Assembly: GCA_049801375.1 (NCBI GenBank)
Contig: JBARKJ010000046.1
Coordinates: 3,204-67,203 of the forward strand
Direction of reading: 5' to 3'
From: Nitrospirota bacterium
GTDB lineage: Bacteria; Nitrospirota; JACRHJ01
Length of the DNA: 64,000 nucleotides
Position numbers and translations under genes: made by a program
Shown: positions 29,500 through 54,174 of the stretch, one piece after another
How positions within the stretch are numbered: the first letter of the stretch is position 1
How the letters are laid out: each line of letters begins with the position of its first letter
Notes under the pieces: model-generated
Databases searched by the model: none
Seen by the model: only the letters and a program-made list of their open reading frames with translations
What the model was told of the DNA's origin: nothing

Positions 29500-29502
29500 T
29501 TT

Positions 29503-31895: not shown

Positions 31896-31906
31896 CAAAA
31901 AAATTC

Positions 31907-42243: not shown

Positions 42244-43155
42244 TTATAAACCAAGTACAGTTGCCAAATTACCGTACAAAATCTTTTGTTTGGAAGGAAG
42301 CGTTAAGGCTAGTGCGTTAACCGCGTCTATCGACGCCTTTATCTCCCGGTTCGCCGGGAAATCGCTCCCCCACAGCACCCTGTCCTCGCCGAATACATCG
42401 GCCGCAAGTTCCAGCATCTTTACGTCCGCCGTGCCGGAAGTGTCCACGTAAACTTTCTTCAACGTCTCCCCCGGTTCCTCACCCATGTCCTTCACTATCC
42501 CCCGGCCAAGGAGCATCTTGTACGTCCTTCCGTATCTGCCGGCAAGAAACGGCATCACGCCAGCAAAGCTCGCGAACACAAGCTTCAGCCGGGGGAACTT
42601 TTTCAGCAGGCCAGAGTCGATAACCCTGGCGAGGCAGAGCGTGGTATCGAACGCATACTGGAACACCGGAGTTATCAGCGGGTGGCGCAGCTTCTCGAAC
42701 CCGAACGGAGTAAGCGTAGTGGGATGAAAAAAGACCGGCGCTCCCCACCCTTCGGCCTTCTCGAAAAAAGGCAGGAACCTATCATCGTCCGGATAATTAC
42801 CGCCGTTGTTCGTCGGCACTGTAAATCCGGCCGCGCCCTGCGCCAATGCCTCTTCCCCCAGAGTGACCATATCGTCAGCCCCTGCCAATGGCACTGACCC
42901 AAGCCATAAAATACGCCCAGTCGACCTCTTTGCTATGTCCTTCACCGCCCCGTTATATACGCGCGCCGCATCCGTTTCCGCAAGGGCGGCCTTGATGTGA
43001 AAATCGGTAGTCGGGTATGATACCAGCGCGCGAGAAACGCCGGCTTCGTCCATTGCACGAAGATGGTTATCAATTCCGCCCCAGGACTCGTTGTAGAACG
43101 AGGCGTGTTTGATTACCTCGTCCGGCAATAGATGGAAATGCGAATCGAATATCAT
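42244..43155 (-). CDS. Amidohydrolase_2 family (ACMSD / hydroxybenzoate (de)carboxylase / 2-pyrone hydrolase-type TIM-barrel metalloenzyme)
   Basis: The start was set at Met17 (MIFDSHFHLL, the metal-binding HxH of the amidohydrolase fold). ...VLWGSDFP (C-terminal Asp ligand). 1-nt shared ATG/TAA overlap with the flavoprotein gene. Confidence 0.65.
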   Translation of the reverse strand: MIFDSHFHLLPDEVIKHASFYNESWGGIDNHLRAMDEAGVSRALVSYPTTDFHIKAALAETDAARVYNGAVKDIAKRSTGRILWLGSVPLAGADDMVTLGEEALAQGAAGFTVPTNNGGNYPDDDRFLPFFEKAEGWGAPVFFHPTTLTPFGFEKLRHPLITPVFQYAFDTTLCLARVIDSGLLKKFPRLKLVFASFAGVMPFLAGRYGRTYKMLLGRGIVKDMGEEPGETLKKVYVDTSGTADVKMLELAADVFGEDRVLWGSDFPANREIKASIDAVNALALTLPSKQKILYGNLATVLGL

Positions 43156-43880
43156 TAATATCTCAGCACTTCTTTTATCGTTTGAAACAGCTCCGAATTC
43201 CACACGTCGTATACTTGTTCGCCCACCGCGCGCGCCATCATTGTTGCTGGTTTATTCTCCTCATAGGACGGCATCGGCTTATCCAGCAGGGTTTTAAAAC
43301 CGGGATGCTCCATCGCGAAACGCTTTCCAACCATGCAGAGGTTCCTCATCTCCGCATCCATCAGGGCGATTCCAGCGCACGCGACCGACGTCGCCGTCAT
43401 TGCTTTCAGGTAATGGAACAGGTAATAGAGCGCGCCCTCCATGCCGAGCGCCGCGCCAACCGCGAGGTTACCCACCGGGGCGCCCTTGAAAGGGTTTTTC
43501 GGGTATGCGGTGATAGTCGTCCCCCATATCTCCGAACGCTCCTGTTCGTGCAGGGGGCGGGTCCTGTGCAAAAGGTTCATGACTATTGCGGGCTGTTGAT
43601 AGGCATAGACCGGGGACGAAAAAATAAACGCGTCCGATTCGGACATTTTATCAAAAATGAGCTTTCCGTCGTCGCCCTTGTCTTCAAGTAGAGGGCAGGT
43701 AAGGCCGCAGAGGCAGCGGTTGCATGCGAGGCATGGCTTCACGTTGTAATTTATCAGGCGGATAACTTCAGACTCGGCGCCTTTTTCCTCGGCGGCCTCA
43801 AGCGCCTTGCGCAGAAAATAATCGCTGGCGGATTTCTGCTTCCCCCTCTTGTGCGTCCCACAGATACCAAGTATCTTCAT
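43155..43880 (-). CDS. Iron-sulfur flavoprotein (Isf) / NADPH-dependent FMN reductase family
   Basis: The start was set at Met72 of the track ORF (MKILGICGTHKRG, the flavodoxin-like FMN phosphate loop). Compact Cys cluster CLACNRCLCGLTC, typical of Isf [4Fe-4S] binding. Confidence 0.7.
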   Translation of the reverse strand: MKILGICGTHKRGKQKSASDYFLRKALEAAEEKGAESEVIRLINYNVKPCLACNRCLCGLTCPLLEDKGDDGKLIFDKMSESDAFIFSSPVYAYQQPAIVMNLLHRTRPLHEQERSEIWGTTITAYPKNPFKGAPVGNLAVGAALGMEGALYYLFHYLKAMTATSVACAGIALMDAEMRNLCMVGKRFAMEHPGFKTLLDKPMPSYEENKPATMMARAVGEQVYDVWNSELFQTIKEVLRY

Positions 43881-44305
43881 ATTCCCTCGATTATTTCTTT
43901 TATCCTCTGCATGTTCTTCTTCGAGTGCTCGTTTATACGGGCTTCCGCCGTTTTGTCGTCCACCGGCGCTTTTTCGTCCATAGAGAAGTCCTGCTCCCAG
44001 GTCATCTCCACCCCGCCGTCTTTCTCTACGTATGTCCAGAGGAGGTCCATGTATTTGAACGGGAACATCGGCTCCTCGCGTTTCGCGGAGCATTTATGCC
44101 CGGGCTTGTCCAGGATGCGACTGGAGCGCCAGGACTTCCCATCTTTGTTGGTCAACTGGAAGGTTATTTTGTTTCCTTCGCGCGAAAGGATCTTCGCGTC
44201 CGAATACTCGTCAAAAAGCTCGGGCCAGCGCTCGATGTCGTTCGTAATGTCGAACACGCTCCCATAAGGCGCGTTTATGAAGATTGAATTCTTGGTGTGT
44301 GCCAT
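43877..44305 (-). CDS. Type II polyketide aromatase/cyclase (SRPBCC, TcmN / WhiE-ORFVI ARO/CYC N-terminal-domain type), stand-alone
   Basis: 142 aa. NSIFINAPYGSVFDITNDIERWPELFDEYSDAKIL...PMFPFKYMDLLWTYVEKDGGVEMTWEQDFSMDEKAPVDD...NMQRIKEIIE follows the TcmN pattern [29 protein letters not shown]...FAYMNLHWTY...[21 protein letters not shown]...NMERIKKIIE (recalled from memory). Confidence 0.7.
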   Translation of the reverse strand: MAHTKNSIFINAPYGSVFDITNDIERWPELFDEYSDAKILSREGNKITFQLTNKDGKSWRSSRILDKPGHKCSAKREEPMFPFKYMDLLWTYVEKDGGVEMTWEQDFSMDEKAPVDDKTAEARINEHSKKNMQRIKEIIEGI

Positions 44306-44314
44306 TATTTTCCT

Positions 44315-45085
44315 TTAGTCCTCGAGTATAGCCACGGCGCGTGCCCATGCCGCGCCCGCGTTTTTTATCTTTACAGGGAAACAGGCGAACTTAAATCCGT
44401 GCGCCCTCGGGAGCGCGCCGAGGTTTGCGAGCCGCTCTATATGACAGTATTCTTTTTTTCTTCCCAGCATGTGTACCGGCCAGAGTTTTGAGCTGTCCGC
44501 GGTCGTTTGATAATCTGCTACCATATTCATAAAAGGCCTGTCCAGGCCCGGCGCGTCGGTCCCGATAGTCCTGATTCCAAGACCGAATAAATATTCCGCC
44601 GCACGGGCATCCAAACCCGCGAATTTAAGAAAATATTCCTTGGTGCCAAAGTACCTGTCCGCCCCGGTCCTGATGAGCGCGATATCGCCCGGTTTCGGCT
44701 TGTAATTTATTTCTTCTAAGCCCCGCCGCACATCATCCGGTTTTATTTCTCCGCCGGGCGGCAGACTTCTCATGTCAATTACAAAACCGTCCCCATAGCA
44801 CCATTCAAGGGGGACCTCGTCTATCTTCTTCGCCGGCCGTCCTTCCGATTCCGGCCCGAAATGCCACGGCGCGTCCACGTGCGTCCCGCAGTGAACCGAC
44901 GCCTGGACGGTCTCATGTGACAGGAACATCCCGCCGGGAAAAGTATCGCCGCCAATTTTCTTCTCTCCCGGAAATTTTTCCCCTACCCTCTCCGCGCCCT
45001 CCTCATGGCCAATCCGGGTCACCTGTACCGGAAAAGGTTCAGGCGCCAAGTCGTCTATAGGGGTGCTTAGGTCGATTATTTTCAA
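44315..45085 (-). CDS. Cyclase-family protein (PF04199; kynurenine-formamidase-like metal-dependent hydrolase / putative polyketide cyclase)
   Basis: 256 aa. ...SVHCGTHVDAPWHF (His-rich metal site, HxGTHxDxPxH) is diagnostic of the cyclase family. Confidence 0.75.
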   Translation of the reverse strand: MKIIDLSTPIDDLAPEPFPVQVTRIGHEEGAERVGEKFPGEKKIGGDTFPGGMFLSHETVQASVHCGTHVDAPWHFGPESEGRPAKKIDEVPLEWCYGDGFVIDMRSLPPGGEIKPDDVRRGLEEINYKPKPGDIALIRTGADRYFGTKEYFLKFAGLDARAAEYLFGLGIRTIGTDAPGLDRPFMNMVADYQTTADSSKLWPVHMLGRKKEYCHIERLANLGALPRAHGFKFACFPVKIKNAGAAWARAVAILED

Positions 45086-45318
45086 GACCTGGCCGCCACG
45101 GTTAGAAAATAGTCGATTATCTCGCGGACCGTAATCACGCCGTTTATCACGCCGTCGGGGATTTTGGCCGAGAATTCTTTTTCCAGCGCAACCATCAGTT
45201 CCACCATCTCAGTCGAGTCAATCCCGAGACCGCTTTTCAAAGTCGCGTCAGGGCGAAGTTCATTTTTGCCTATGCCTATTTCCGCGAAAACTTTTTCTAC
45301 CCTCTCTTCTACCGGCAT
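45082..45318 (-). CDS. Acyl carrier protein (PKS ACP)
   Basis: 78 aa. GIDSTEMVEL (phosphopantetheine attachment Ser in the DSxE/xxE motif). ATGA overlap with the cyclase gene. Confidence 0.8.
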   Translation of the reverse strand: MPVEERVEKVFAEIGIGKNELRPDATLKSGLGIDSTEMVELMVALEKEFSAKIPDGVINGVITVREIIDYFLTVAARS

Positions 45319-45328
45319 CCTTTACCTC

Positions 45329-46537
45329 TTACCTAGGCTTTCCGATTAAAAGGCAGGCGTTTACCCCGCCCCGCCCGATGGAATTTATAATGATATCCTG
45401 CTGATCGAACTTCTTTGTTCCGCCGCCGTTAAAGAAATCAAATTCCGGATCAAGCACTTTGAGGGTCGGCGTCTCACCTCTACCAAGCGCCATGCAGGCA
45501 AGTGCCGTGTCGAGCGCGCCGGACGCCCCTAATAAATTCCCAGTCTGCGGCTTCGGCGAATAAACCGGCAGTTCACTTGCCCTGTTTCCGAATATTTTTA
45601 AAAGGGCCCTTCCCTCGGATAAATCTGCTTCCTTCCCCGCATTCGCGGATGGGATAGCCATCCCGATTTCGGATGGAGAGATAGCGGCCTGCCGCATCGC
45701 GAATCCGATGGCGCGGGCCATGCCTTCGCCTGAGGGGTCCGGCATAGTCGGATGGACACCGTCGCTGGTAAACCCGAAACCTTTTACTTCCGCGTATATT
45801 CTGGCCCCCCTCGCGGCTGCCTTTTCCATATCTTCGATGACGAGTACGGCCGCCCCTTCGCCGATTATATATCCGTCCCGGCTCTTACTGAAGGGCCTGT
45901 AGCTCCCGGTCTGGCTGAGCTCCCCGGATGTATTGCAACACAGAAGCGCGTAAGGCGATACCGGGGCTTCGGTGCCGCCAGCTAACATCACGTCCGCCTT
46001 GTCCGTTTGAATGGCTCGCGCGGCGTAAGCGATAGCTAGATGCGAACTTGCTATGTCGGAAATTATGGTCTTGGAAAAACCTTTTATGCCGTAGAAGATG
46101 GATATCTGGCCCTGCGGCGCCGCCGGGAACCATGCGGTTGCCTGGTACGGGCTGACTTCCCGAAGGCCGTGCTTCCAGAGGTCCCGCAGTTCCTCCTCCG
46201 CAAAAGCCCAGCCGCCCAGGGCGTTGCCGAAGGCTATCCCGACACGGTCTTTGTCCTCGGCGTCAAGGTTAATCCCGCTGTCTTTAATCGCCCCGTCGGT
46301 GGCTGAGAGCGCCATGTGCGAGAACCTGTCCAGCTTCTTAAGTAGCCGCTTGGAAAATATCTCTTCTCCGCCAAGATTATTTACCAACCCCGCGTGACGG
46401 GACGGATAGCGCGAAGCGTCAAAGCGGCTGATCTCGCCCGTGAAGCCATCGCCCGAGGAGAGCCTGTCGAATAATTCTTCAGGCGAATTGCCAGCCGGGC
46501 TCACTACCCCGATGCCTGTTATGACCGCGCGTCTCAT
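45329..46537 (-). CDS. Ketosynthase beta / chain-length-factor-like KS homolog lacking the catalytic Cys and second His
   Basis: The start was set at Met38 (MRRAVITGIGVVSPAG, ATGA overlap with the KS-alpha stop). In the active-site region ...FSKTIISDIASSHLAIAYAARAIQTDKADVMLAGGTE the Cys of T-A-C-x-(T/S) is replaced (Ile or Asp). One His is retained (VHPTMPD) and the second His region is divergent (MAIPSANAGKE). Confidence 0.8.
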   Translation of the reverse strand: MRRAVITGIGVVSPAGNSPEELFDRLSSGDGFTGEISRFDASRYPSRHAGLVNNLGGEEIFSKRLLKKLDRFSHMALSATDGAIKDSGINLDAEDKDRVGIAFGNALGGWAFAEEELRDLWKHGLREVSPYQATAWFPAAPQGQISIFYGIKGFSKTIISDIASSHLAIAYAARAIQTDKADVMLAGGTEAPVSPYALLCCNTSGELSQTGSYRPFSKSRDGYIIGEGAAVLVIEDMEKAAARGARIYAEVKGFGFTSDGVHPTMPDPSGEGMARAIGFAMRQAAISPSEIGMAIPSANAGKEADLSEGRALLKIFGNRASELPVYSPKPQTGNLLGASGALDTALACMALGRGETPTLKVLDPEFDFFNGGGTKKFDQQDIIINSIGRGGVNACLLIGKPR

Positions 46538-47790
46538 GCCCGCCTCAAGACCATTGACGAATGGATCCCGGAGAACCCGCTGCTCGTTTTTATCACCACG
46601 TCCACCTTTTTCTCCCGCGCCCAGTTCGGCACATAATCTAAGTCGCATGCAGGGTCGGGCTCACGGTAATTCACCGTCGGCGGGATAATGCCCCGCTCCA
46701 TCACCATCGCCGAAAGCGCTAGCTCGATGGCGTTCGCCGCGGAAAGCGGATGTCCTATCATGGACTTGATGGAACTGACGGGCACCCGAAAGGCATGTTC
46801 CTTAAGCGCGGTCTTTATCGCGTTCGTCTCGAAGACATCGTTCTGTTCCGTGGAGCTTCCATGAGAGCTTATGTAATCAACGTCATCGGCGTTGACCCGC
46901 GCCTCGTCCATAGCCATTTTTATAGACCGGGCAAGGGCCTCGCCGTCCGGCGGTAAATCCGTCATGTGATACGCATTGGATGTGGAGCCGAAACCTGCTA
47001 TCTCCGCATATATCTTCGCACCGCGCTTCGCCGCGTGCCCGTATTCCTCCAGTACCAGTATCCCCGCGCCCTCGGCCAGGACAAACCCGTTCCTCGTCCT
47101 GTCGAAAGGACGAGACGCCGCCCCGGGGTCGTCATTATGCTTCGAGAGCGCCTTTATTACATCGAATGCGGCAAGGGCTATCGGCGTAATCGGGGCCTCG
47201 GACGCGCCGGTTATCATCATGTCGCATAAGCCGAGTTGGATATTTTCATACGCATAGGCCACCGAATCCGTCCCGGCCGTGCAGCCGGTGGATATGACGC
47301 ACGCACCGCCTTTTAAGCCATAGCGCGCGGCTATGAAGTTGGCGGGAGAATTGAATATGGACGCATCATACAGATACGGCGACGCGAGGCCCGGGTCAAT
47401 CGGCTCATGCCCGTTCCGGGTCACGCGCAGGAACTCCTCCTCCATCCATTTCGTCCCGCATATGGCGTTAGCCAGCGCCACTCCGCACCGCTCACGATCC
47501 AGGCCGCCGAATTCCAGCCCGGCGTCCTCCACTGCCAGCTTCGCCCCGGCCAGGGCGAACTGCAGATAGCGGTCCATCCCCGAGGCCTCTTCAGACGAGA
47601 TGCCGAAGACGGCGGGGTTGAACCCCTTCACTTCCGCCGCGACCTTCGAAAGGAACTCGGAGGTATCGAATGCGGTAATAAGCCCGGTCTGCGTCCGCGC
47701 GTTTATCATGGAATCCCAGAAGGCGTCTTTACCGATGCCTCCCGGCGCGATAACGCCCAGGCCTGTTATGACGACCCTGCGGAGATTCAA
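46534..47790 (-). CDS. Ketosynthase alpha (FabF/KAS II-like, catalytically competent)
   Basis: 418 aa. ISTGCTAGTDSVAYA (active-site Cys), AYHMTDLP (His1), YISSHGSST (His2), C-terminal NSFGFSGIHSSMVL-like end. Confidence 0.85.
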   Translation of the reverse strand: MNLRRVVITGLGVIAPGGIGKDAFWDSMINARTQTGLITAFDTSEFLSKVAAEVKGFNPAVFGISSEEASGMDRYLQFALAGAKLAVEDAGLEFGGLDRERCGVALANAICGTKWMEEEFLRVTRNGHEPIDPGLASPYLYDASIFNSPANFIAARYGLKGGACVISTGCTAGTDSVAYAYENIQLGLCDMMITGASEAPITPIALAAFDVIKALSKHNDDPGAASRPFDRTRNGFVLAEGAGILVLEEYGHAAKRGAKIYAEIAGFGSTSNAYHMTDLPPDGEALARSIKMAMDEARVNADDVDYISSHGSSTEQNDVFETNAIKTALKEHAFRVPVSSIKSMIGHPLSAANAIELALSAMVMERGIIPPTVNYREPDPACDLDYVPNWAREKKVDVVIKTSSGFSGIHSSMVLRRA

Positions 47791-48056
47791 CCCTCCACCC
47801 TCCTGACCTTGAACCGCACATACCCGCCGTCCGGGCAGGTTACGGTGTTGATGGAATTCGGGTCTTCCATGAAGGGGTACTTCGCACCGAAGTTCAGGGC
47901 GAAGAGCACCGGGAACAGCGTATGGTATGCCGCGCCGCAGAAACCTTCCGGCGTCCGAAGTCCCAGGACCTCCACCTCCTGGCCCCGCTCGTATTTATAA
48001 AAACACGGCCCGGAAACTTCCTCGACCGATATAACCATTTTTTTGGGATTTGCCAT
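47787..48056 (-). CDS. Small Cys-containing protein, paralog B (~89 aa; resembles TIGR04076-type proteins)
   Basis: The start was set at Met21 (MANPKKMVISVEEVSGPCFYKYERGQEVEV...PEGFCGAAYHTLFP...FGAKYPF...VTCPDGGYVRFKVRR). ATGA overlap with the KS-alpha gene. Confidence 0.5.
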   Translation of the reverse strand: MANPKKMVISVEEVSGPCFYKYERGQEVEVLGLRTPEGFCGAAYHTLFPVLFALNFGAKYPFMEDPNSINTVTCPDGGYVRFKVRRVEG

Positions 48057-48319
48057 TATAATTTCCTCACCTTGAACGTCAGTTTCCCACCGTCCGGGCA
48101 TGTCGTCCTGACGCAACCTTCCCCATCCTTGAAAGGGAATTCCGCGCCGAATGTCCAGGCATAAATAATCGGGAATAGCGAATGATACGCCCCGGCGCAG
48201 AAGCCGTCGGGCGGCGTCACGAAGTCCTTTACCTCAAAAGAATCACCCGCTTTATATCCCTTGAAACATTCTTTTTGAAGACTGTCCACCGTCAGCAGAA
48301 AACCCGGAAACTCCATCAT
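48056..48319 (-). CDS. Small Cys-containing protein, paralog A (87 aa; resembles TIGR04076-type proteins)
   Basis: ...KECFKGYKAGDSFEV...PDGFCAGAYHSLFP...FGAEFPF...TTCPDGGKLTFKVRK. The same architecture as paralog B (~45% identity by eye). TAATG stop/start overlap. Confidence 0.5.
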   Translation of the reverse strand: MMEFPGFLLTVDSLQKECFKGYKAGDSFEVKDFVTPPDGFCAGAYHSLFPIIYAWTFGAEFPFKDGEGCVRTTCPDGGKLTFKVRKL

Positions 48320-49314
48320 AAGCCTAACCTCGTTAGCATCTCTTCCGTTGATAGAAATTGATTTGTTTTTTCGATTTCCCTGACCAGCTCCGCCGCTTTT
48401 GAATTCAACTTTGCCTCCCGCCCCATCTCAAGCGCCACCCTCGCGACTTCGCCGTTTAAATAATCCACCTCCGACGAGCGGCCCCGCATGACGCTCTGCA
48501 GGACGGAGCCTGGAAGGGGGAGGTGGGAAAGGCCCCGCATGATATTGCCATATATCTGCGCCCCCACTTCCTCCGGGGCGTATAGCAGCGATTTCAACTT
48601 CTCCAGAGGCAGGTTCGGGAGGTCGGCCATCTCCATCCCTCCCGCTTCAAAAACCTCCCATGCTTCGCGCATCATCGACAGCCCCAATATGCATATCCTT
48701 TTATCCGAAAACGTCTCCTGCAGGTTCTTCCCCAGTACGCAGGCAAGCGCGTTATTCAGGTTCAGTACGAGCTTCGCGCGGTGCATGGCCTGGATGTTGC
48801 CGGCTACGCGCACTTCTAAAGACCCGGCCATGATACTCTTCGCCTTATCGACAATGCCGCCGCCGTCCGGGCCGAACGCCTTGCCTATAACCAGGCCGCC
48901 GGGAAAGTTATACGTTACATGCCCCGGCTCTTTATATGTCGCCCCGAACATAACGACCGAAGAAATGATTCGCTCGCTGCCAAGGATGCTTCCGGCTATC
49001 TCGTCGGCCATCAGGCCGTTCTGCATCGTCAGCGCCGGAAAATCACCCATGCCTGCAATCTGAGTACACGCCGTTTCCAGGTCCTGCGTCTTTACCGCGA
49101 GGAGGGCCAGGTCGGGAATGAACTCCAGCGACCTTGCGGCATATATGACAAAGTTATTCCTTGCCGAAATGCCGTCAAGCGACAGGCCTTCGCGGTTAAT
49201 CGCCCGGACCTGGCGCGGGTCGCGGCTGACAAGGGTAACAGCGTGTCCCTTCTCATGGAGCAGCGCCCCCGCAACACACCCGATAGCCCCCGCGCCGATT
49301 ACCGCTATTTTCAT
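48316..49314 (-). CDS. Ketopantoate-reductase-family NAD(P)H oxidoreductase (ApbA/PanE); candidate polyketide ketoreductase
   Basis: 332 aa. MKIAVIGAGAIGCVAGALL Rossmann N-terminus; C-terminal ApbA_C-like domain. Confidence 0.75.
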   Translation of the reverse strand: MKIAVIGAGAIGCVAGALLHEKGHAVTLVSRDPRQVRAINREGLSLDGISARNNFVIYAARSLEFIPDLALLAVKTQDLETACTQIAGMGDFPALTMQNGLMADEIAGSILGSERIISSVVMFGATYKEPGHVTYNFPGGLVIGKAFGPDGGGIVDKAKSIMAGSLEVRVAGNIQAMHRAKLVLNLNNALACVLGKNLQETFSDKRICILGLSMMREAWEVFEAGGMEMADLPNLPLEKLKSLLYAPEEVGAQIYGNIMRGLSHLPLPGSVLQSVMRGRSSEVDYLNGEVARVALEMGREAKLNSKAAELVREIEKTNQFLSTEEMLTRLGL

Positions 49315-49387: not shown

Positions 49388-51253
49388 TTAATGAGGTTTT
49401 CCTGTTTTAACGTCCCAGCCGTGGCAGGCGTAATATTCGTCCAGCATCCCGTCGTACAAATCCCGGTCGAGCTTCATCGTTCGAGATTCGTCGTCCAGCC
49501 CGTCCTGCCATATGAGCGGCTCGAAATACCTCATGGGCGGGTAATCGTCTTTCCGCCCCACGCCCTCGTGGCAAATGAACCTGCGCTCCACATCCGTTAT
49601 AGCGTGTCCCGCCGCGAATACCTCTTCCGGCGCCATCTCCATTCCGCTGCCCTTCCTGATGAGGTCGCTGAATACATTGAAGCCGAATACGCCCGGCTCC
49701 GGCAAGGTGTGGAAGGCCAGGAGCTTGCACAGCCCCAGCGCGTCGAAGAGCGCTAGATAACTTTCCCACCACCAGACCACCCGGCCCTTGCCGCCATATT
49801 TCAGCGGGTCCGGCTCCACCGGCCCGCCATAAATTCCCGCCAGAAATTCCTTATCGAATTCGAACGCCTCCCAGGGACAGCGGCTTCGGAGGTGGTCTGC
49901 ACCGCGGGTTGCGGTGGAGACTCCAAGGGCGAACGCCTTGATGAACCGGAGGTCTACCGGGTCCGACTGCGGGAGGCCCTTCACCCAGATCATGCGTCCG
50001 GCCGAGTCCTTTCCGAATTGAGCCGACGCCGCCGATGCGCCGTTAGCAAGGACGTCTCCAAACCCTCTGCGGTATGCAATATCCTCCAGAAGCAGGGCGA
50101 CCGTCTCCGGGTCGTTCCAGTCCAGCTTCATCCCGCCGGTCTCGGCGTCTCCGATAAAACCTTCTTTATACAATTCTATTGCCCACGCTATTATGTTGCC
50201 GGCGGAGCTTGCGTCTATGCCGAGGCGGTTAAGCCTGTCGTTCAACATGAGTACCGCTTCGGAGGAATTTATCCCAAGCACCGGCCCCATATGTCCCATG
50301 ATGCCGTATTCCGGACCTTCGCCTGTCAGCCCGGCATGTTTTCCTTCAGTTATTTTATATGAATGCCTGCACGCCACCGCGCAGTGCCTGCATCCGCGTT
50401 TGCCCGAATAATATCGTGCTTCCAGCGTCTCCGGGCCAAGGTCCCCGGGCTCTTTCATTTTCGTCGAGAGGCCGTTATATGCCCGGCCCATCTCGATGTT
50501 CGTATTTATTACGTTATATAGATGCGCCGTCCCGAAACGCGCAAGGTCCTGCGTAAGGAATTCCGTCCGAAGCTTCGAATTTATTTCGTGGGTAAGGGCA
50601 GCAAAACCGTCCGGGTCGTGCGGCTGGACCTTCCCGCCGTCGAGCGCCACAACCGCCTTCAAATTTTTTGCCCCCATCAGGCAGCCCATCCCGGTGCGGC
50701 CCGCGGCATTCTTTCTGCCGTGCATAACGCATGCGAAGCGGACGAGGTTCTCACCGGCCGGGCCTATGCACGCGATATGGGCCTTCACGCCATGCTCCTC
50801 TTTTATGACCTTTTGCGCTTCGACTGTGTCCATGCCCCAGACGTGCGAGGCTTCTTTTATTTCCGCAGCCGTCCCGTCGCCAATTTTTTTTATAAGAAGA
50901 TAAACGGGTCTATCCGACTTACCTGTGATGACCAGATGCCTGACGCCCGTGGAGGCTAAAGCGCACCCGAAATCCCCTCCGATATTCGCGTCTCCTAAAA
51001 GACCGCTCTCCGGGCTCTTGCCGGTGATGGTCAGTCTGGCGGATGACGGCCCCGGCATCCCGGTTAGCAGGCCCGCGCCGAATATCAACGGGTTCTCCGG
51101 GCTTAGAGGGTCCAGGCCTTTCTTTGTATTTTCAAAGAGCAGCGCGCTGTTTATCCCCCGCCCGCCGATGTAATTGCGAAGGAGGCTTTCCGGAAGGTCC
51201 TTTACTTCGGAGGCCCCGCCGCTTAGATCTATATATAAGATTTTATGGTTCAT
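49388..51253 (-). CDS. Aldehyde:ferredoxin oxidoreductase (tungsten/molybdopterin AOR family)
   Basis: 621 aa. N-terminal KILYIDLSGGASEVKDLPESLLRNYIGGRGINS (AOR_N); internal CRHC-type [4Fe-4S] Cys ligands (GCRHCAVACRH). Confidence 0.85.
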   Translation of the reverse strand: MNHKILYIDLSGGASEVKDLPESLLRNYIGGRGINSALLFENTKKGLDPLSPENPLIFGAGLLTGMPGPSSARLTITGKSPESGLLGDANIGGDFGCALASTGVRHLVITGKSDRPVYLLIKKIGDGTAAEIKEASHVWGMDTVEAQKVIKEEHGVKAHIACIGPAGENLVRFACVMHGRKNAAGRTGMGCLMGAKNLKAVVALDGGKVQPHDPDGFAALTHEINSKLRTEFLTQDLARFGTAHLYNVINTNIEMGRAYNGLSTKMKEPGDLGPETLEARYYSGKRGCRHCAVACRHSYKITEGKHAGLTGEGPEYGIMGHMGPVLGINSSEAVLMLNDRLNRLGIDASSAGNIIAWAIELYKEGFIGDAETGGMKLDWNDPETVALLLEDIAYRRGFGDVLANGASAASAQFGKDSAGRMIWVKGLPQSDPVDLRFIKAFALGVSTATRGADHLRSRCPWEAFEFDKEFLAGIYGGPVEPDPLKYGGKGRVVWWWESYLALFDALGLCKLLAFHTLPEPGVFGFNVFSDLIRKGSGMEMAPEEVFAAGHAITDVERRFICHEGVGRKDDYPPMRYFEPLIWQDGLDDESRTMKLDRDLYDGMLDEYYACHGWDVKTGKPH

Positions 51254-51365
51254 GTTTTATACTTGTCACACCCGTGAAAACGGGTATCCGGGTGCCCCGG
51301 CGGGAATGACGGTCAGTCCCTTCTTAACCCCCTTTCTTAACATTAAGAAGGGGGGAAGAGGAGAG
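51254..51365 (-). other. Structured 5' leader of the AOR gene (two to three GC-rich hairpins)
   Basis: Minus-strand hairpins CTTCCCCCCTTCTTAA-TG-TTAAGAAAGGGGG and ACCCGTTTTCACGGGT lie immediately upstream of the AOR ATG. Not followed by a U-tract. Confidence 0.3.
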
Positions 51366-51611
51366 TTATGCCGGCATATCGAATCCCGCGCTCCTGGCCG
51401 TGTCCCGCATACTATTCTGAAACGGCGCCGGGGTCTCTGCAATCAACGCAGCTACTATATGGTCCTCTTCGACCTGCGCCGCGCCGCGTTCCTGCGCGTA
51501 TTCTTCCGCCTTCTTCCCCGCCAGTCTCTCCGCCATCTTCCGCTGAAAAAATGGGATCATAGATATCATTTTTTCAAATTTCGTCCGCGCCCCAGTCTCC
51601 CAGTCCATCAA
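51366..51611 (-). CDS. Small PCP-reductase-family-like protein (PF08369-like, 81 aa)
   Basis: MMDWETGARTKFEKMISMIPFFQRKMAERLAGKKAEEYAQERGAAQVEEDHIVAAL resembles the stand-alone PCP_red domain (W...A...L..IP.FxR). Confidence 0.45.
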   Translation of the reverse strand: MMDWETGARTKFEKMISMIPFFQRKMAERLAGKKAEEYAQERGAAQVEEDHIVAALIAETPAPFQNSMRDTARSAGFDMPA

Positions 51612-52129
51612 TGTCTCCTTATTAATGATTTGAAGAAACGTCTCCTGTCCTGCTCTTCAGGAGAAAGCCGATCCTCCTCTTGCTTCGAGACTTCAACACC
51701 CTCAAGGCTCGCCTTCAGAGAACGCAGAATCAGTTTTATATTATCGTCATGCATCCGCCGGTAAATGCGCGCCCACAAGATGCGGTTAAGATTCCCGACT
51801 ATTTCGTAGTCCATCAGGAAATGGACCTCGTTGAACCCCCGGTTGGGAATTATATATACCTTGTCCGTGCCCTTGAACATCCCGTTGATGAATTTCCTTG
51901 AGACCTCGCGTCCGGGCGTGATTGAAGTCACCTCGACGTCCCATTCCGGCGCGAACGGCCTGTGCACTTTCTGATGGAATATCGTGCCGACCTTTATCTC
52001 TCCCTTTTCTTCGCGGCTGTACTTCATGGGCGATTCATCAGGCCACCAGGAACTCTCGCCCCAGAGGATAACTTGTTCGAATATCTTTTCATGCGGCGCC
52101 TGTATCTCCACGAAGTGGTGGTTCAGCAA
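51608..52129 (-). CDS. SRPBCC-superfamily protein (Polyketide_cyc2-like) with a charged C-terminal tail
   Basis: 173 aa. HHFVEIQAPHEKIFEQVILWGESSWWP ... TRVT-like strand pattern. Weak family-level call. Confidence 0.4.
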   Translation of the reverse strand: MLNHHFVEIQAPHEKIFEQVILWGESSWWPDESPMKYSREEKGEIKVGTIFHQKVHRPFAPEWDVEVTSITPGREVSRKFINGMFKGTDKVYIIPNRGFNEVHFLMDYEIVGNLNRILWARIYRRMHDDNIKLILRSLKASLEGVEVSKQEEDRLSPEEQDRRRFFKSLIRRH

Positions 52130-53529
52130 TTCTTAAGCTCCGCGATCTTGTCCTCTACCAGCTTCTTGAACGGGGCGGGGGTAACCCTCTGCCATGCGGC
52201 GTAAATATCGTCCAGGCTCACTTTCCCGCCGTTTACATTTACCTCCGCGGACACTTTTTTCCCGGCGGTCGAACGGAAAATCGCGGGTACGAAATCAATG
52301 AGTTTTTTATGAGCCGTCTGCGCTTCGGAGTCCCATTCGCCCGCCGTCGGCTCCGGCTCTTCCCGGTAAATCTCGCCGGAAACGAGCGACTCCAAAAGCG
52401 CCTCGTACCTCCCTGCAACCTCCCCCGTCAGCGCCTTGTCCACCGTAAGCGCCCTCTTGGCGATCAGGGCGCAGTACCCGCACTCTTCGCAGTCACTCGT
52501 CGCGCAGTCCTTGGTCTTGAAGAAGCTTAAGAAGTTTGACGGGACCTTCGAGTTATCCAGGACCAGGCCTTCCGTCACCGGGTAATCCGTGATATCCGCG
52601 AACTCCATCAATTTAGACGTATTTATATATTCATCCCTCAGGAGATACTTTACATTCGCGGGCAGGAACGCCTTCTTGCGGGGAAGGTTCAGAAGCTCCA
52701 CGAGGTTCCCGTCAAACCGCCTGTCGGTATATGCCTTCAGGTACGACAGCAGCGTCTCGGTGGTCTTGTAACGGTCTATGATCTTAAGGCAATCAATGCC
52801 TATCATCTCGTAATCTTCCACGTCCTCGGGGCGTATCCAGCGTATCTTTATCAACTCCGCCGGGTTTTTTATCTTGTCCTTCGTGCAGGAGAAATAGCAG
52901 TGGTCAACAAGGAAGCCTTCGGAGGAATGATTACCCTGGGAGCCGTGTGTCATGACGTTCGCGTGGTAGAAAGAGCGCGGACATCCGTACAGGCAGCCGG
53001 GGTTGGCGATAAGGATAAGCTTGCACTTTACCGCTTTCCGGATGGCCTCCAGGGTTTTAAAATCACGGTTTATCTCCTCGGACAGCACGATAGCGTCCGC
53101 GCCCATCTCCTCCCAGTACTGGGCCTTCCGTACGCTCTCCACCCGCGCCCAGGAAGATACTACGGCTTTCAGGGCCGGATAATGTTTTTTGATTATCTGG
53201 AAGAGGTAGGGTATTGTGACCGTCACCCAGTCCGCGGAGGTCGCCTGCACCCATTCGACATGACGGAGTATCTTTTCGAACTCGTCTTTTCTGTACTCCC
53301 TGTTATCGAGACAGGAGGCATTCAGCAGGAAGTTGAAAGAATGCCCTGCTTCGCGTGCGGCTGCGATATATTTTTCGGCGTCGGCTTCCGTCACTTCCGG
53401 GGCGACGAAAGACGCCCTGCCCCCCGCGATAAGGCTTCCGGGGATGCCGCCGAACAGCTCCACCTTCGGGGAGCCTTCCAGCCCTTCAAGGAGCGCGGGA
53501 TCCCAATTACATGCCAGTTCGAATTTCAT
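52123..53529 (-). CDS. Cys-rich protein of unknown function (468 aa), putative Fe-S or metal enzyme
   Basis: Motifs GCLYGC, HCYFSC and DCATSDCEECGYC; GADAIVLSEE TIM-barrel-like stretch. No confident family assignment from sequence alone. Confidence 0.35.
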   Translation of the reverse strand: MKFELACNWDPALLEGLEGSPKVELFGGIPGSLIAGGRASFVAPEVTEADAEKYIAAAREAGHSFNFLLNASCLDNREYRKDEFEKILRHVEWVQATSADWVTVTIPYLFQIIKKHYPALKAVVSSWARVESVRKAQYWEEMGADAIVLSEEINRDFKTLEAIRKAVKCKLILIANPGCLYGCPRSFYHANVMTHGSQGNHSSEGFLVDHCYFSCTKDKIKNPAELIKIRWIRPEDVEDYEMIGIDCLKIIDRYKTTETLLSYLKAYTDRRFDGNLVELLNLPRKKAFLPANVKYLLRDEYINTSKLMEFADITDYPVTEGLVLDNSKVPSNFLSFFKTKDCATSDCEECGYCALIAKRALTVDKALTGEVAGRYEALLESLVSGEIYREEPEPTAGEWDSEAQTAHKKLIDFVPAIFRSTAGKKVSAEVNVNGGKVSLDDIYAAWQRVTPAPFKKLVEDKIAELKNC

Positions 53530-54086
53530 GCGGCCCCTTCCCTTCCAGCCTCAAGTCTGCCGATTATCCCTTCCAGAAACTTTATCTCCGCCTCCGAGTG
53601 CGCGAGGTAATGCGCGGGTATGAAAAGCATATGCTCCGGCGCGCCCTTCGATGCCAGTTCGTCTTTAAACCGCTCCGCTTCGGCGTGATACTCCTTAAGC
53701 CGCACCCGGAGTTCCCGGAGTTGAACAAGGAACTGCCCCGCATCCGATTCCCGGAGAAAATAGAAGGATATATCAAGCGCCAGGTGCGGACGCTCGAAGT
53801 TCGTTATGTTCTCCTGAAGGAGGCTGTCGAAGGTGCGGACGCCCTCGTCCGTGATATGGTAAATCTGCTTTTCGGGGTGCGCGGTGTCCTTGAGGACGCT
53901 CTTGGTCACAAGGCCGCGTTTTTCCAGGATTTTGAGGTTATGGTAGAGCGAGCCGGAGGTGATGGGCGCGACATGGACGAGTTCCTCGTCCACAAGCTGC
54001 TTTATCTCGTAGCCGTACATCGGCTTCCTCTTCAGAAGTCCAAGAAGAAGCACCTCTTTCGACATCGTGGTATTAAAGCCTGCCAC
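53526..54086 (-). CDS. PadR-family transcriptional regulator (head of the co-directional cluster)
   Basis: LLLGLLKRKPMYGYEIKQLVDEELVHVAPITSGSLYHNLKILEKRGLV is the PadR winged-HTH. An alternative start is Met8 at 54065. ATGA overlap with the next gene. Confidence 0.8.
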   Translation of the reverse strand: MAGFNTTMSKEVLLLGLLKRKPMYGYEIKQLVDEELVHVAPITSGSLYHNLKILEKRGLVTKSVLKDTAHPEKQIYHITDEGVRTFDSLLQENITNFERPHLALDISFYFLRESDAGQFLVQLRELRVRLKEYHAEAERFKDELASKGAPEHMLFIPAHYLAHSEAEIKFLEGIIGRLEAGREGAA

Positions 54087-54123
54087 GCCATCCCCCTTTT
54101 CGCGCTATTACGGCTTAAAATAG

Positions 54124-54133
54124 TTTACGTAAA
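54124..54133. promoter_or_regulatory. Perfect 10-bp palindrome TTTACGTAAA between the -10 element and the PadR start; candidate PadR operator
   Basis: Self-complementary. Positioned ~12 nt downstream of the predicted -10, where a repressor would occlude RNA polymerase. Confidence 0.35.
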
Positions 54134-54144
54134 ATAGCTTGCGT

Positions 54145-54174
54145 ATAATAGCAGGAGAAAACCTGGAATGTCAA
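54145..54174 (-). promoter_or_regulatory. Putative sigma70 promoter of the PadR-headed operon (-35 TTGACA at 54174-54169, 18-nt spacer, -10 TATTAT at 54150-54145)
   Basis: Consensus-like hexamers read on the minus strand, in the 104-nt gap between the S2P stop and the PadR start. Confidence 0.4.

Follow-up and report, generated by a model that had tools for sequence, protein, structure and literature searches.

The analysed stretch of DNA (64 kb, hereafter the window) carries at 49388-54174 a promoter and an operator-like site followed by the genes of a PadR-family regulator, a U32-family Fe-S protein, an SRPBCC-fold protein, a mini-protein and an AOR-family enzyme. All features of the segment lie on the minus strand, at the coordinates that a preliminary description of this DNA had given. 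It is best explained as the opening part of an operon, under its own regulation, at the start of an anaerobic type II polyketide cluster. Its features are as follows.

54169..54174, minus strand: -35 hexamer TTGACA
54145..54153, minus strand: extended -10 element TGcTATTAT, 18 nt past the -35 (TG at 54153-54152, TATTAT at 54150-54145)
54120..54137, no strand assigned: operator-like 18-bp inverted repeat CTATTTTAC/GTAAACTAT, at about +1 to +18 from the predicted transcription start
54116..54143, no strand assigned: tandem 14-nt direct repeat (86% identical; family D1), which covers the transcription start region and overlaps the operator-like site
53526..54086, minus strand: two-domain PadR-family regulator, 186 aa (Pfam PadR 2.5e-17), GTG start, stop overlapping the U32 start by 4 nt
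52123..53529, minus strand: U32-family Fe-S protein, 468 aa (PF01136), with a TIM-barrel core, two Cys motifs and a C-terminal helical domain
51608..52129, minus strand: SRPBCC-fold protein, 173 aa, start overlapping the U32 stop by 7 nt, C-terminal tail with RRRFFK
51366..51611, minus strand: free-standing PCP_red/DUF2621-like mini-protein, 81 aa (80 aa from a probable ATG at 51608)
51254..51365, minus strand: structured intercistronic spacer of 112 nt between the mini-protein and AOR genes, with four hairpins and no U-tract
49388..51253, minus strand: AOR-family pterin/[4Fe-4S] oxidoreductase, 621 aa (AFOR_N 1.6e-70, AFOR_C 3.2e-87)

Promoter, operator-like site and PadR regulator

The promoter TTGACA-18-TATTAT, which the preliminary description had placed here, is present, scores 11/12 with the extended -10 TG, and is the sole match of at least 11/12 on both strands of the window, against a mean of 0.47 in Markov simulation. 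Across 14 related loci, whose PadR orthologues are 67-97% identical, conservation covers the -35, the TGnTATTAT element and the block CTATTTTACGTAAAcTAt, while the flanks diverge. The TG and most -10 positions are invariant, and TTGAC[AT] is kept in the related loci whose sequence covers it. The promoter marks the head of the cluster, as had been proposed: synteny ends exactly upstream of it in more distant relatives, and the M50 gene is missing in loci L004, L009 and L011.

The perfect 10-bp palindrome singled out earlier, TTTACGTAAA, is found at 54124-54133, but it is not unusual by itself, as perfect 10-bp palindromes number 58 in the window against about 78 simulated, which is chance frequency alone. 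Its significance derives from conservation rather than rarity, because it sits at the centre of a longer inverted repeat (18-20 bp; consensus CTATTTTAC/GTAAAATAG) kept in the 14 loci. Within this larger repeat four symmetric base pairs are invariant, and locus L091 carries a perfect 20-bp palindrome, ACTATTTTACGTAAAATAGT. A search for conserved RNA structure at the operator-like site found none. A weaker copy of the motif overlaps the -10.

The PadR gene has a ribosome-binding site GGGGG at 54092-54096, and its start-codon column across loci holds GTG, ATG or TTG. The protein matches the PadR structures 6jyi and 5x11, as well as 8jxk over residues 11-177. It resembles two-domain PadR repressors (B. 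subtilis PadR 5x11; 6jyi) in its N-terminal winged helix, C-terminal dimerisation domain and length of about 186 aa, in a gene position adjoining the presumed targets, and in a palindromic site that overlaps the promoter. It differs from them in that the candidate operator is a contiguous 18-20 bp palindrome and the regulator gene itself opens the operon that it is proposed to repress.

Because a symmetric, conserved site and a strong promoter stand upstream of PadR, and because the reading frames of PadR, U32, the 173-aa and the 81-aa protein overlap or abut, the natural reading of the sequence is that PadR autoregulates at least this PadR–U32–173-aa–81-aa sub-operon. The operator-like site occurs once per locus, always ahead of the PadR gene, so control of the whole cluster by PadR, which the preliminary description had suggested, would depend on read-through into the polyketide synthase genes; in this lineage the structured 112-nt spacer stands between the mini-protein and AOR genes. 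In the proposed scheme, a sigma-70 promoter with an extended -10 would drive the PadR-family repressor gene, and a PadR dimer would bind the inverted repeat at about +1 to +18 and so keep its own transcript repressed; an aromatic intermediate or product from the pathway, the presumed ligand, would release it.

The conserved block could instead be the site of another regulator, or a constrained promoter or initial-transcribed region, with PadR acting elsewhere. PadR operators of the B. subtilis type are reported to read ATGT-N8-ACAT, which the site here does not resemble; the candidate operator also overlaps the tandem direct repeat, and in locus L014 the module is kept although no PadR gene precedes it. 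We nevertheless consider this unlikely, since the symmetry of the site, with its four invariant pairs and the perfect L091 version, fits a dimeric winged-helix protein, and since the site strictly co-occurs with the PadR gene.

The U32-family protein and its polyketide cluster

The 468-aa protein had been described as a Cys-rich protein of unknown family with three Cys clusters. The clusters are real, with almost every Cys in them invariant, but the family is Peptidase_U32, PF01136 (8e-12; 45 bits against a cut-off of 22.4). The AF2 model (pLDDT 90.8) has the U32 protein 5d88 as its best Foldseek match (E 9e-12), and 297 homologues were found. The NCBIfam TrhP model gives 2.9e-5 (23 bits against an equivalog cut-off of 534), and the protein reaches no characterised NCBIfam equivalog. 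Its Cys positions are arranged as follows.

53311-53313, minus strand: extra invariant C73
52885..52995, minus strand: Cys motif 1, C179-x3-C183-x27-C211-x3-C215, a variant counterpart of the U32 CX6CX15CX3C [4Fe-4S] motif
52471..52506, minus strand: Cys motif 2, C342-x4-C347-x2-C350-x2-C353, four of four invariant

Across 62 homologues, eight Cys in two groups are invariant and one more is at least 90% conserved; specifically, C73, C179, C183 and C215 never vary, and C211 is the position at or above 90%. Motif 1 occupies the same place as the motif of E. coli TrhP; its spacing departs from the canonical U32 form, CX6CX15CX3C (PMC11574389). Motif 2 is kept in forms of about 390 aa that lack the C-terminal domain, and its four-Cys pattern probably forms a second metal or Fe-S site.

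The protein shares with UbiU/UbiV, which serve ubiquinone hydroxylation without O2 in E. coli, the U32 TIM-barrel and conserved Cys for Fe-S binding. A small hydrophobic-ligand-binding accessory protein is encoded adjacent, as UbiT accompanies UbiU/UbiV, and the presumed substrate would likewise be an aromatic ring, carried by a lipophilic metabolite whose synthesis needs no O2. In contrast to the UbiU-UbiV heterodimer, however, it is a single 468-aa protein of marginal sequence similarity (single UbiU and UbiV sequences match only weakly in profile comparison), with CX3C-X27-CX3C spacing, the extra C73, a CX4CX2CX2C second motif and a PCP_red-like domain; the accessory is SRPBCC rather than SCP2, and the pathway is type II polyketide rather than quinone biosynthesis. 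TrhP and RlhA are U32-family RNA hydroxylases that depend on prephenate. Among characterised proteins TrhP gives the best sequence match (profile E 1e-12, covering the barrel core), and with RlhA the protein has in common additional essential-looking C-terminal Cys (PMC5727448). Unlike TrhP and RlhA, the protein has no DUF3656, no RNA-related genomic context and another C-terminal architecture.

Downstream of the segment lie the following genes, all on the minus strand.

47787..49314, minus strand: ApbA/PanE-type reductase (48316-49314) and two small proteins of the TIGR04076 family, which in Nitrospirota are conserved together with the module
42244..47790, minus strand: minimal type II PKS and cyclases (KS-alpha, CLF, ACP, cyclases), comprising
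46534-47790, minus strand: KS-alpha, best PDB matches actinorhodin KS 1tqy (4.8e-119) and AntD 6smo
45335-46537, minus strand: CLF, without the active-site Cys
45085-45318, minus strand: ACP
44315-45085, minus strand: PF04199 cyclase
43880-44305, minus strand: Polyketide_cyc2
43158-43880, minus strand: FMN_red
42244-43203, minus strand: Amidohydro_2

What recurs from phylum to phylum in homologous type II PKS clusters is the U32 protein. Its subfamily lies inside such clusters in Lachnospiraceae, Clostridium botulinum, Gorillibacterium and a metagenome contig, which share with the window KS-alpha (41-47% identity), CLF, PF04199 cyclase, Polyketide_cyc2, a HemN-like protein, FMN_red and a B12-binding radical SAM protein (B12-rSAM). 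No classical O2-dependent oxygenase domain was seen among the genes of the homologous clusters; a cupin gene is present. The KS-CLF-ACP-cyclase core, with a KS-alpha nearest to the actinorhodin and AntD enzymes, is shared with type II clusters from Gram-negative and anaerobic bacteria, Photorhabdus ant and Dendrosporobacter den, the latter reported to be without oxidase/oxygenase or methyltransferase genes (PMC7693217). To this core the present family adds U32, HemN-like, B12-rSAM, FMN_red and Amidohydro_2, and the Nitrospirota versions further add PadR, SRPBCC, AOR, ApbA and TIGR04076.

U32 Fe-S proteins are tied to O2-independent, prephenate-dependent hydroxylation (PMC10990095; PMC11574389), direct hydroxylase activity in vitro having so far been demonstrated for no U32 protein (PMC10990095). 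The 468-aa protein is best read as an O2-independent, probably prephenate-dependent, hydroxylase of an aromatic polyketide. Translationally coupled to PadR, it would be the tailoring enzyme with which the cluster oxygenates its product independently of O2. As proposed from the examples of UbiU/UbiV, TrhP and RlhA, its Fe-S centres would take two electrons from an anthrone- or phenol-like aromatic ring of the polyketide, and the enzyme would then install a hydroxyl that is most probably prephenate-derived. Genes for a stand-alone chorismate mutase, an enzyme whose product is prephenate, and for a class I/II aminotransferase flank the subfamily in Thermodesulfobacteriota; this context is limited to one related clade, about 40% identical, and amounts to essentially one evolutionary observation. 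The 64-kb window holds no chorismate mutase.

The family name and a JGI automatic annotation, 'collagenase-like PrtC family protease', would make the protein a PrtC-like peptidase unconnected with the polyketide. This is barely credible against nine conserved Cys in two motifs, a start coupled translationally to PadR, a position inside biosynthetic clusters in several phyla, and the reassignment of Fe-S U32 proteins to hydroxylation (PMC10990095; PMC11574389; PMC5727448).

The module might also make or modify a starter unit, with U32 hydroxylating a simple aromatic acid and AOR plus ApbA setting its oxidation state before loading. Small aromatic or aliphatic acids and aldehydes are the typical AOR substrates, the module lies upstream of the minimal PKS, and in Dehalococcoidales the U32 gene adjoins an AMP-ligase with KS and ACP genes. 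We give this a low probability: the cluster in the window showed neither an acyl-CoA/ACP ligase nor a priming KSIII, and in Bacillota the U32 gene stands amid the late tailoring genes HemN-like, B12-rSAM and FMN_red.

Hydroxylation of the polyketide itself is the preferred role of U32. The overall picture of a PadR-gated operon with U32 oxygenation, helper proteins and an accessory AOR/ApbA redox pair carries slightly better than even confidence; if right, it suggests a route by which anaerobes might oxygenate aromatic polyketides.

SRPBCC protein and PCP_red/DUF2621-like domain

The 173-aa protein has no Pfam match and only 16 homologue clusters. Its AF2 model (pLDDT 84) gives 218 Foldseek matches below 1e-3, the best-ranked being PYR/PYL, Bet v 1-like, CoxG and Aha1 proteins (SRPBCC), so that the predicted fold agrees with the SRPBCC call of the preliminary description. 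The protein may hold or present a hydrophobic substrate to U32, as UbiT does for UbiU/V.

The 81-aa protein, previously called PCP_red-like, does match PCP_red at 7.5e-6, a value below the Pfam gathering score, and DUF2621 at 5.5e-4. A domain profile finds exactly three copies in the window, the free-standing one and two fused ones.

52126..52338, minus strand: PCP_red/DUF2621-like helical domain, U32 residues 398-468 (profile 6.7e-25; four helices by AF2)
37334..37546, minus strand: third copy, residues 447-517 of the B12-binding radical SAM protein (gene 37322-38884, 13 kb away)

The 81-aa protein is a paralogue of both fused domains. It shares 34% identity with the U32 C-terminal domain (E 6e-8). 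The B12-rSAM C-terminus is 30% identical to it (E 2e-9) and is recovered at 5e-16 by the profile, outside whose training set it lies. DUF2621 is matched by 12 of the 14 domain copies, and in locus L030 the PCP_red-like domain is fused N-terminally to radical SAM proteins of about 450 aa. Like the BchB/ChlB C-terminal domain (PCP_red; NMR structure 2kru) and DUF2621, the domain is helical and about 70 aa long, with weak but repeated profile matches. Unlike them, however, its matches fall below gathering scores, and it occurs on U32 and radical SAM enzymes or alone, without a nitrogenase-like partner. It could act as a shared docking or lid module that recruits tailoring enzymes to a common partner.

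The AOR-family enzyme

The AOR call made earlier is genuine, both AFOR domains being present, and the best PDB match is P. furiosus AOR, 1aor (2.5e-82). In common with 1aor and the bacterial AORs 8c0z and 9mqx, the enzyme keeps both domains, the CxxCxxxC + C [4Fe-4S] ligands, the pterin-region GxD motif and the His448 equivalent. It departs from them at PEYE, which reads PEYG here: Gly occupies the position of the P. furiosus catalytic Glu313, and the position is Gly or Ser in every cluster orthologue (Ser in L014). It also lacks AorA/AorC-type partners, is located in a polyketide cluster, and has no adjacent ferredoxin partner. This atypical enzyme of the tungsten/molybdenum type belongs to a small and divergent clade, its closest 50%-identity representative being 53% identical. 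The set of U32, SRPBCC, PCP_red, AOR and ApbA stays together in relatives as distant as L014, where U32 identity is 52%, and AOR is a Nitrospirota-specific accessory. Together with the adjacent ApbA-type reductase it would form an accessory redox pair, most likely acting on a carboxyl, aldehyde or carbonyl of the polyketide or starter, the least certain step of the scheme.

The preliminary description had suggested that the AOR might reduce a polyketide acid for chain release or tailoring. That idea stays weak and speculative because the AOR is a Nitrospirota-specific accessory; moreover, the Glu313 equivalent is absent. A fuller version would make low-potential reduction of a polyketide acid to the aldehyde by a tungsten AOR the key chemistry, in release or tailoring, with the Cys-rich protein as accessory electron carrier. 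The intact domains and Fe-S ligands, the bona fide AOR as best structural match, an ApbA-type reductase always following the AOR and able to perform the next reduction, and Desulfobacterium-type loci with tandem U32 genes after LuxC/LuxE, another acid-to-aldehyde system, all speak for it. It is still rather unlikely, given that the homologous Bacillota type II PKS clusters all have U32 but no AOR, that Glu313 is replaced throughout the cluster orthologues, that the Cys-rich protein is a TIM-barrel U32 enzyme and no ferredoxin, and that tungsten use is not readable from sequence.

The U32 reaction is predicted to leave phenylpyruvate as its by-product (PMC10990095), and the AOR and its neighbours could recycle it, from prephenate through phenylpyruvate and phenylacetaldehyde to phenylacetate, with AOR taking the last step. 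A gene with a POR-gamma domain lies at 33486-34541, and an aminotransferase and chorismate mutase stand near the subfamily elsewhere, showing that genes for co-substrate handling can be part of such clusters. Recycling is nonetheless highly unlikely, as a phenylpyruvate decarboxylase was not seen, neither the chorismate mutase contexts nor the Bacillota clusters have the AOR, and general metabolism can dispose of phenylpyruvate.

The spacer preceding the AOR gene (51254-51365) has a minimum free energy of -43.6 kcal/mol (z = -3.3), and the corresponding spacer in L009 and L011 is only 15-27 bp long.

The U32 protein and its C-terminal domain

The head of the cluster consists of five genes, and the features that the preliminary description had placed in this region all lie on the minus strand at those positions:

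53526-54086, minus strand, PadR regulator
52123-53529, minus strand, U32 protein (468 aa)
51608-52129, minus strand, SRPBCC protein (173 aa)
51366-51611, minus strand, PCP_red-like mini-protein (81 aa)
49388-51253, minus strand, aldehyde oxidoreductase-type enzyme (AOR)

The most interesting of these parts is the U32 protein, which had been left unnamed as a Cys-rich protein of unknown family. Its family is Peptidase_U32, as established by PF01136 (45.4 bits against a gathering cut-off of 22.4, residues 85-267) and by sequence and structure matches to PDB 5d88. PF01136 is carried by all full-length U32 homologues listed, and 5d88 is matched at 5.7e-11 by sequence. An AF2 model built with 62 homologues reaches a pLDDT of 90.8, and Foldseek returns the same U32 structure as its top match (E 9e-12, TM(target) 0.74).

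Two groups of cysteines stand out in the 62-sequence alignment. The first comprises the invariant residues C73, C179, C183 and C215 together with C211, whose conservation is at least 90%; the second is made up of C342, C347, C350 and C353, all of them invariant. The first motif reads C179-x3-C183-x27-C211-x3-C215 (CX3C-X27-CX3C). Characterised U32 proteins carry a CX6CX15CX3C motif that binds a [4Fe-4S] cluster (PMC11574389), and the register obtained from E. coli TrhP places C179-C215 at that motif. The alignment of the U32 family profile with TrhP ends seven residues before the first motif Cys of TrhP, and the last step of the register to the motif is an extrapolation. Relative to the canonical motif, the window protein would therefore present four cysteines at the equivalent place, but with CX3C-X27-CX3C spacing and an invariant C73. 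Alignment of the Cys ligands to UbiU and UbiV through hhalign was too weak for use, leaving TrhP as the sole source of a usable register.

The protein falls outside the characterised subfamilies UbiU, UbiV, TrhP and RlhA. Specifically, it reaches 23 bits for the NCBIfam TrhP equivalog, whose cut-off is 534, it matches none of the other NCBIfam equivalogs, and hhalign of its family with UbiU and UbiV gives a probability of at most 16%.

At the C-terminus, 70 residues make up a domain of four helices, which shares 34% identity with the 81-aa protein (E 6e-8). The earlier label of PCP_red-like mini-protein holds at the level of profile similarity to PCP_red and DUF2621, with both scores under the gathering thresholds (PF08369, 26.3 bits vs 32.5; PF11084, 20.4 vs 27.7), so that "PCP_red-like" is the proper term. 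At E <=0.01, 12 of 14 domain copies match DUF2621 and 5 of 14 match PCP_red; PDB 2kru is reached at E 0.36-0.46 only. Searched with a profile of the domain, the 64-kb window yields three copies and no more: the mini-protein, the C-terminus of the U32 protein and the C-terminus of a B12-radical-SAM enzyme (37322-38884), the last scoring E 5e-16 although it was outside the sequences of the profile. The domain also links the first genes of the cluster with genes lying 13 kb further downstream. Cysteine-free, helical and common to different tailoring enzymes, it looks like a docking or lid module. In a Pseudobacteroides MAG (L030:8519-19180), it is C-terminal on three U32 paralogues and N-terminal on two radical-SAM proteins of ~450 aa; by these fusions, it acts as a mobile unit shared by tailoring enzymes of the anaerobic kind.

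Type II polyketide clusters and the predicted role of the U32 subfamily

The polyketide synthase genes downstream (42244-47790) make up a type II (aromatic) cluster. The KS-alpha carries the active-site motif TGCTAG and finds 1tqy and 6smo as its best PDB matches, so that FabF is a more distant relative than the ketosynthases of actinorhodin and of Photorhabdus (AntD). The chain-length factor (CLF) has no Cys at the active-site position, and a discrete ACP, a PF04199 cyclase and a Polyketide_cyc2 protein are present after the KS/CLF pair. Among Nitrospirota the order PadR, U32, SRPBCC, PCP_red-like, AOR, ApbA, two TIGR04076 genes, KS, CLF, ACP, cyclases, FMN_red and Amidohydro_2 is maintained down to 72% U32 identity, the closest genome being a Nitrospirota MAG (L007) at 95%.

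The U32 subfamily also occurs inside type II clusters of four Bacillota sources, namely an uncultured Lachnospiraceae, a metagenome contig, Clostridium botulinum and Gorillibacterium sp. CAU 1737. Identities to the window are 41-47% for KS-alpha, 41-46% for the PF04199 cyclase, 39-48% for Polyketide_cyc2 and 33-34% for U32. Homologues of the CLF and of a HemN-like enzyme are common to both groups as well, and FMN_red and the B12-radical-SAM enzyme are shared with the window by two of the four Bacillota clusters.

The oxygens and quinone functions of aromatic polyketides are normally installed by O2-dependent oxygenases. Among the annotated genes of the Bacillota clusters no classical O2-dependent oxygenase domain was found (a cupin gene is present), and the U32 gene is fixed across the homologous clusters; it is thus a conserved candidate for oxygen insertion. 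To our knowledge, U32 is the sole enzyme family linked to hydroxylation with an organic oxygen donor, prephenate. Without O2, ubiquinone precursors, tRNA and rRNA are hydroxylated only if UbiU/UbiV, TrhP and RlhA are at hand (PMC10990095, PMC5727448), with prephenate as the oxygen donor in the ubiquinone case (PMC10990095). Ubiquinone and RNA are the only U32 substrates known so far, direct hydroxylase activity still awaits reconstitution in vitro, and few of the 12 subfamilies have been characterised (PMC10990095, PMC5727448). In an anaerobe, the dendrubin cluster is reported to be without oxidase/oxygenase and methyltransferase genes (PMC7693217), and a precedent for the radical-SAM part is a HemN-like enzyme of a type II PKS cluster that methylates an anthraquinone (PMC9714029). 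Within the library searched, no paper joins U32 proteins with polyketides, and none relevant to AOR with polyketides or to PCP_red was found.

The wider context of the subfamily was examined by clustering neighbours within 7 kb at 79 loci that carry it; coverage extended to the best 80 of 562+ relatives. The most frequent neighbour is a B12-binding radical SAM enzyme (42/79 loci), and ketosynthases lie nearby in 14/79. A Thermodesulfobacteriota/Syntrophia-type clade has the gene order aminotransferase, U32, B12-radical-SAM, chorismate mutase, and chorismate mutase and aminotransferase adjoin related U32 genes in 8-9 Thermodesulfobacteriota loci. Prephenate is the product of chorismate mutase, and this arrangement lends contextual support to prephenate chemistry in the subfamily, from one clade about 40% identical to the window protein. 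The aminotransferase beside U32 could serve in phenylpyruvate removal. The window gives no match to chorismate mutase or SOD-like genes and a single weak match to the U32-context aminotransferase, in a DegT-type gene (23810-24934).

As a separate observation, locus L058:10001-13563 (also L036, L040, L043 and L048) strings together, in a conserved order, a class I/II aminotransferase, an Fe/Mn-SOD-like protein, a short U32 member (about 390-420 aa in such loci), a B12-radical-SAM enzyme, a 131-aa protein and a stand-alone CM_2, which hints at a dedicated prephenate supply for some pathway. In 7-10 Thermodesulfobacteriota loci the neighbours include LuxC and LuxE, frequently beside a tandem pair of U32 genes. 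In the Desulfobacterium-type loci L006:4966-11170 and L028:6109-11176, an FAD oxidoreductase, LuxE and LuxC are directly followed by one or two tandem U32 genes. LuxE and LuxC, an acyl-protein synthetase and reductase, form an acid-to-aldehyde system, a second tie of the subfamily to aldehyde-forming chemistry.

In the scheme we propose, a PadR-gated operon would drive expression of the module, and the U32 protein would carry out O2-independent oxygenation of an aromatic polyketide, with the SRPBCC protein as a helper, the PCP_red-like domain as a shared docking domain, and AOR with ApbA as an accessory redox pair. Of its elements, family membership, folds, conservation and synteny are established, and DNA binding, the oxygen donor, the substrate and the AOR reaction are predictions. 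In its fullest form, the U32/PCP_red protein would supply the O2-independent oxygenase so far missing from aromatic (type II) polyketide biosynthesis of anaerobes, combined with a new docking module and a new polyketide-acting, Glu-less AOR; taken jointly, these claims are tentative and rather unlikely to hold all together. By analogy with ubiquinone, prephenate-derived oxygen would then enter an anthrone- or phenol-type intermediate, and the PCP_red/DUF2621-like domain would recruit U32, the B12-radical-SAM enzyme and the clostridial ~450-aa radical-SAM proteins to a common substrate carrier. As a fixed part of homologous type II PKS clusters from Nitrospirota and from several Bacillota, the subfamily is a specific candidate, open to experimental test, for oxygenating polyketides in anaerobes; if the proposal is true, polyketides would join ubiquinone and RNA as the third class of U32 substrates. 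Further handles are offered by the PCP_red-like domain and by the clade of Glu-less AORs.

Several other features of these clusters were recorded. U32-bearing Bacillota clusters contain an AlkD-like DNA_alkylation repair protein (L069:7365-9989, L103:13060-13770, L104:6674-7387), fused in L069 to a HemN-like radical SAM enzyme; it could confer self-resistance, which would mean a DNA-alkylating product. Between ApbA and KS-alpha, two small TIGR04076 proteins lie in tandem (47787-48319); they have conserved Cys and His, are 76-98% identical in Nitrospirota relatives and are absent from the Bacillota clusters. The PKS cluster runs directly into an outer-membrane/lipid A block with BamA, Skp, LpxD, FabZ, LpxA, LpxI, a GFO/IDH/MocA oxidoreductase, a DegT-type aminotransferase, LpxB, MsbA, KdtA, LpxK and LpxL. 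The cluster itself encodes an LpxL-like acyltransferase and a DUF4410 protein (block and cluster genes together at 14907-31923 and 36430-37329), L012 has an LpxL-like gene beside U32, and the polyketide product may be lipid-anchored. A scan of the first 14 kb of the window for cofactor and transport genes gave only LPS-type glycosyltransferases and an asparagine synthase.

Promoter, operator-like repeat and operon structure

A gap of 104 bp separates the M50 peptidase gene (54191-55042) from the PadR gene and contains the promoter and palindrome that had been described ahead of PadR, both in place on the minus strand:

54174-54169, minus strand, -35 element TTGACA (motif scan)
54153-54152, minus strand, extended -10 TG, after the -35 in the 18-nt spacer promoter
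54150-54145, minus strand, -10 element TATTAT, spacer of 18 nt to the -35
54120-54137, operator-like inverted repeat of 18-20 bp, CTATTTTAC/GTAAACTAT (conservation in 14 loci)
54124-54133, 10-bp palindrome TTTACGTAAA (sequence search)

This promoter is the only sigma-70 match of at least 11/12 on both strands of the whole window, with a simulated expectation of 0.47 on average (first-order Markov). The 10-bp palindrome is indeed perfect; by itself it is unremarkable, with 58 perfect 10-bp palindromes observed in the window against ~78 in simulations. What matters is the longer repeat of 18-20 bp around it, taken as real because it is conserved among related loci.

The upstream regions of 14 loci (8 in a first set) were aligned, from Nitrospirota MAGs and metagenome contigs with PadR orthologues 67-97% identical. 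TTGAC[AT], TGnTATTAT and the block CTATTTTACGTAAAcTAt are kept in all of them, and DNA 5' of the -35 is unalignable among the more distant loci. The symmetry axis of the block is its central CG, with four symmetric base pairs invariant. Locus L091 holds a perfect 20-bp palindrome, ACTATTTTACGTAAAATAGT, with which L095 agrees at 19/20 positions. The symmetric conserved block around the 10-mer therefore makes the latter the core of the 18-20 bp inverted repeat. With a transcription start 6-8 nt past the -10, predicted near 54138, the repeat would lie at about +1 to +18. Its consensus occurs once per locus, always ahead of PadR, and a search at up to 4 mismatches gave no further copies, either within the window or, for relatives, over the ~11 kb that follow. 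The inverted repeat is overlapped by a direct repeat of 14 nt in tandem, and a GTG/ATG/TTG start-codon column and a GGGGG ribosome-binding site are likewise conserved across the 14 loci. An RNA element as the explanation of the conserved leader found no support: RNAalifold predicts no consensus structure for the leader, and an Rfam search of the 5' UTR and the rest of the region returned nothing relevant.

The PadR protein (186 aa; PF03551, 63 bits) aligns with PDB 8jxk over residues 11-177 and also matches the PadR repressors 6jyi and 5x11. It has a winged-helix domain followed by a C-terminal dimerisation domain, and its length accords with the roughly 180 aa of subfamily 1. Binding of PadR to the site would directly imply that it autoregulates the first four genes; for the whole cluster, as the preliminary description proposed, we infer such control from gene orientation and the absence of further sites. 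The regulatory reading is reasonable and now rests on comparative evidence. The promoter and putative operator are ordinary biology, yet they provide a defined regulatory element for switching on the cluster in a heterologous host.

The genes behind this promoter are tightly packed. The PadR stop and U32 start overlap by 4 nt, the U32 and 173-aa genes overlap by 7 nt, the 173-aa gene abuts the 81-aa gene, and overlaps resume from ApbA on into the ketosynthase genes. No convincing intrinsic terminators were found between genes on the minus strand. The M50 gene 5' of the promoter is kept in the closest relatives only and is missing in L004, L009 and L011, and the PadR promoter is therefore the cluster boundary. 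One longer gap precedes the AOR gene:

51254-51365, minus strand, intercistronic spacer of 112 nt (folding)

It folds into four hairpins at -43.6 kcal/mol (z = -3.3) with no U-tract. The equivalent junction spans only 15-27 bp in L009 and L011, and the long spacer is specific to the window lineage. The structured spacer could be a processing/stability element or an attenuator.

The AOR and the SRPBCC protein

The earlier family assignment of the AOR is borne out by both of its domains (AFOR_N, 1.6e-70; AFOR_C, 3.2e-87) and by its best solved relative, P. furiosus 1aor (2.5e-82). A BamB-like dearomatising reductase was considered as its identity and rejected, since 4z3w is matched at 4e-44 against 2.5e-82 for 1aor. 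The [4Fe-4S] ligands CxxCxxxC (CRHCAVAC) and the distal Cys (LGLC) are kept in all AOR orthologues. Glu313 and His448 are active-site positions of P. furiosus AOR, with Glu313 a proposed catalytic residue of 1aor. The window enzyme retains the His448 equivalent (RGADHLRS) but lacks Glu313. The Glu313 position is Gly in the window and in L001, L002, L004, L007, L009, L010 and L011, Ser in L014, and Glu in the unrelated AOR of L039. In an alignment of 156 AORs, comprising the window protein, five locus orthologues and the 150 nearest 50%-identity representatives (P0137-P0286), only 51 have Glu there; others have Gly, Ala, Ser, Asn and more. With the Glu absent and the nearest of the 150 representatives 53% identical, the enzyme falls among the little-studied members of the family, and no substrate should be assumed for it. 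The uncharacterised portion of the family that lacks Glu313 is large.

Throughout Nitrospirota the AOR travels with U32, SRPBCC, PCP_red-like and ApbA, even in L014, whose module has no PadR ahead of it; the Bacillota clusters have no AOR. The AOR and the ApbA-type reductase (48316-49314) are therefore rated as a lineage-specific accessory redox step, with the AOR outside the core of the system. The Pfam scan of window genes turned up no tungstate/molybdate transporter. In L007:12285-14148, the match to the AOR is split into two stretches that overlap (query residues 1-146 and 111-621), which suggests a frameshift or assembly indel, and the L001 gene call is N-terminally shortened to 556 aa.

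The 173-aa protein has no Pfam match and only 16 homologue clusters. Its assignment to SRPBCC nevertheless stands through the helix-grip fold of its AF2 model (pLDDT 84), whose top Foldseek matches are all SRPBCC members (about E 3e-6). In addition, two homologues match PF10604, one of them named SRPBCC by NCBI. Profile search of the PDB returns only CalC, at E = 1. A close copy of the cluster's own Polyketide_cyc2 cyclase is not supported as its identity (hhalign probability <1%). UbiT is an SCP2 protein proposed to present hydrophobic substrate to UbiU/V, and by analogy the SRPBCC protein could present a hydrophobic substrate in the same manner. It could alternatively be a further cyclase; UbiT-like presentation is the favoured reading. 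Its conserved C-terminal tail (51608-51680) bears a twin-arginine-like motif, DRRRFFKSL (DRRRFLKG in the homologues P0129-P0133), with no hydrophobic stretch after it. Shorter orthologues (145-150 aa) are without the tail, which may act as a docking peptide.
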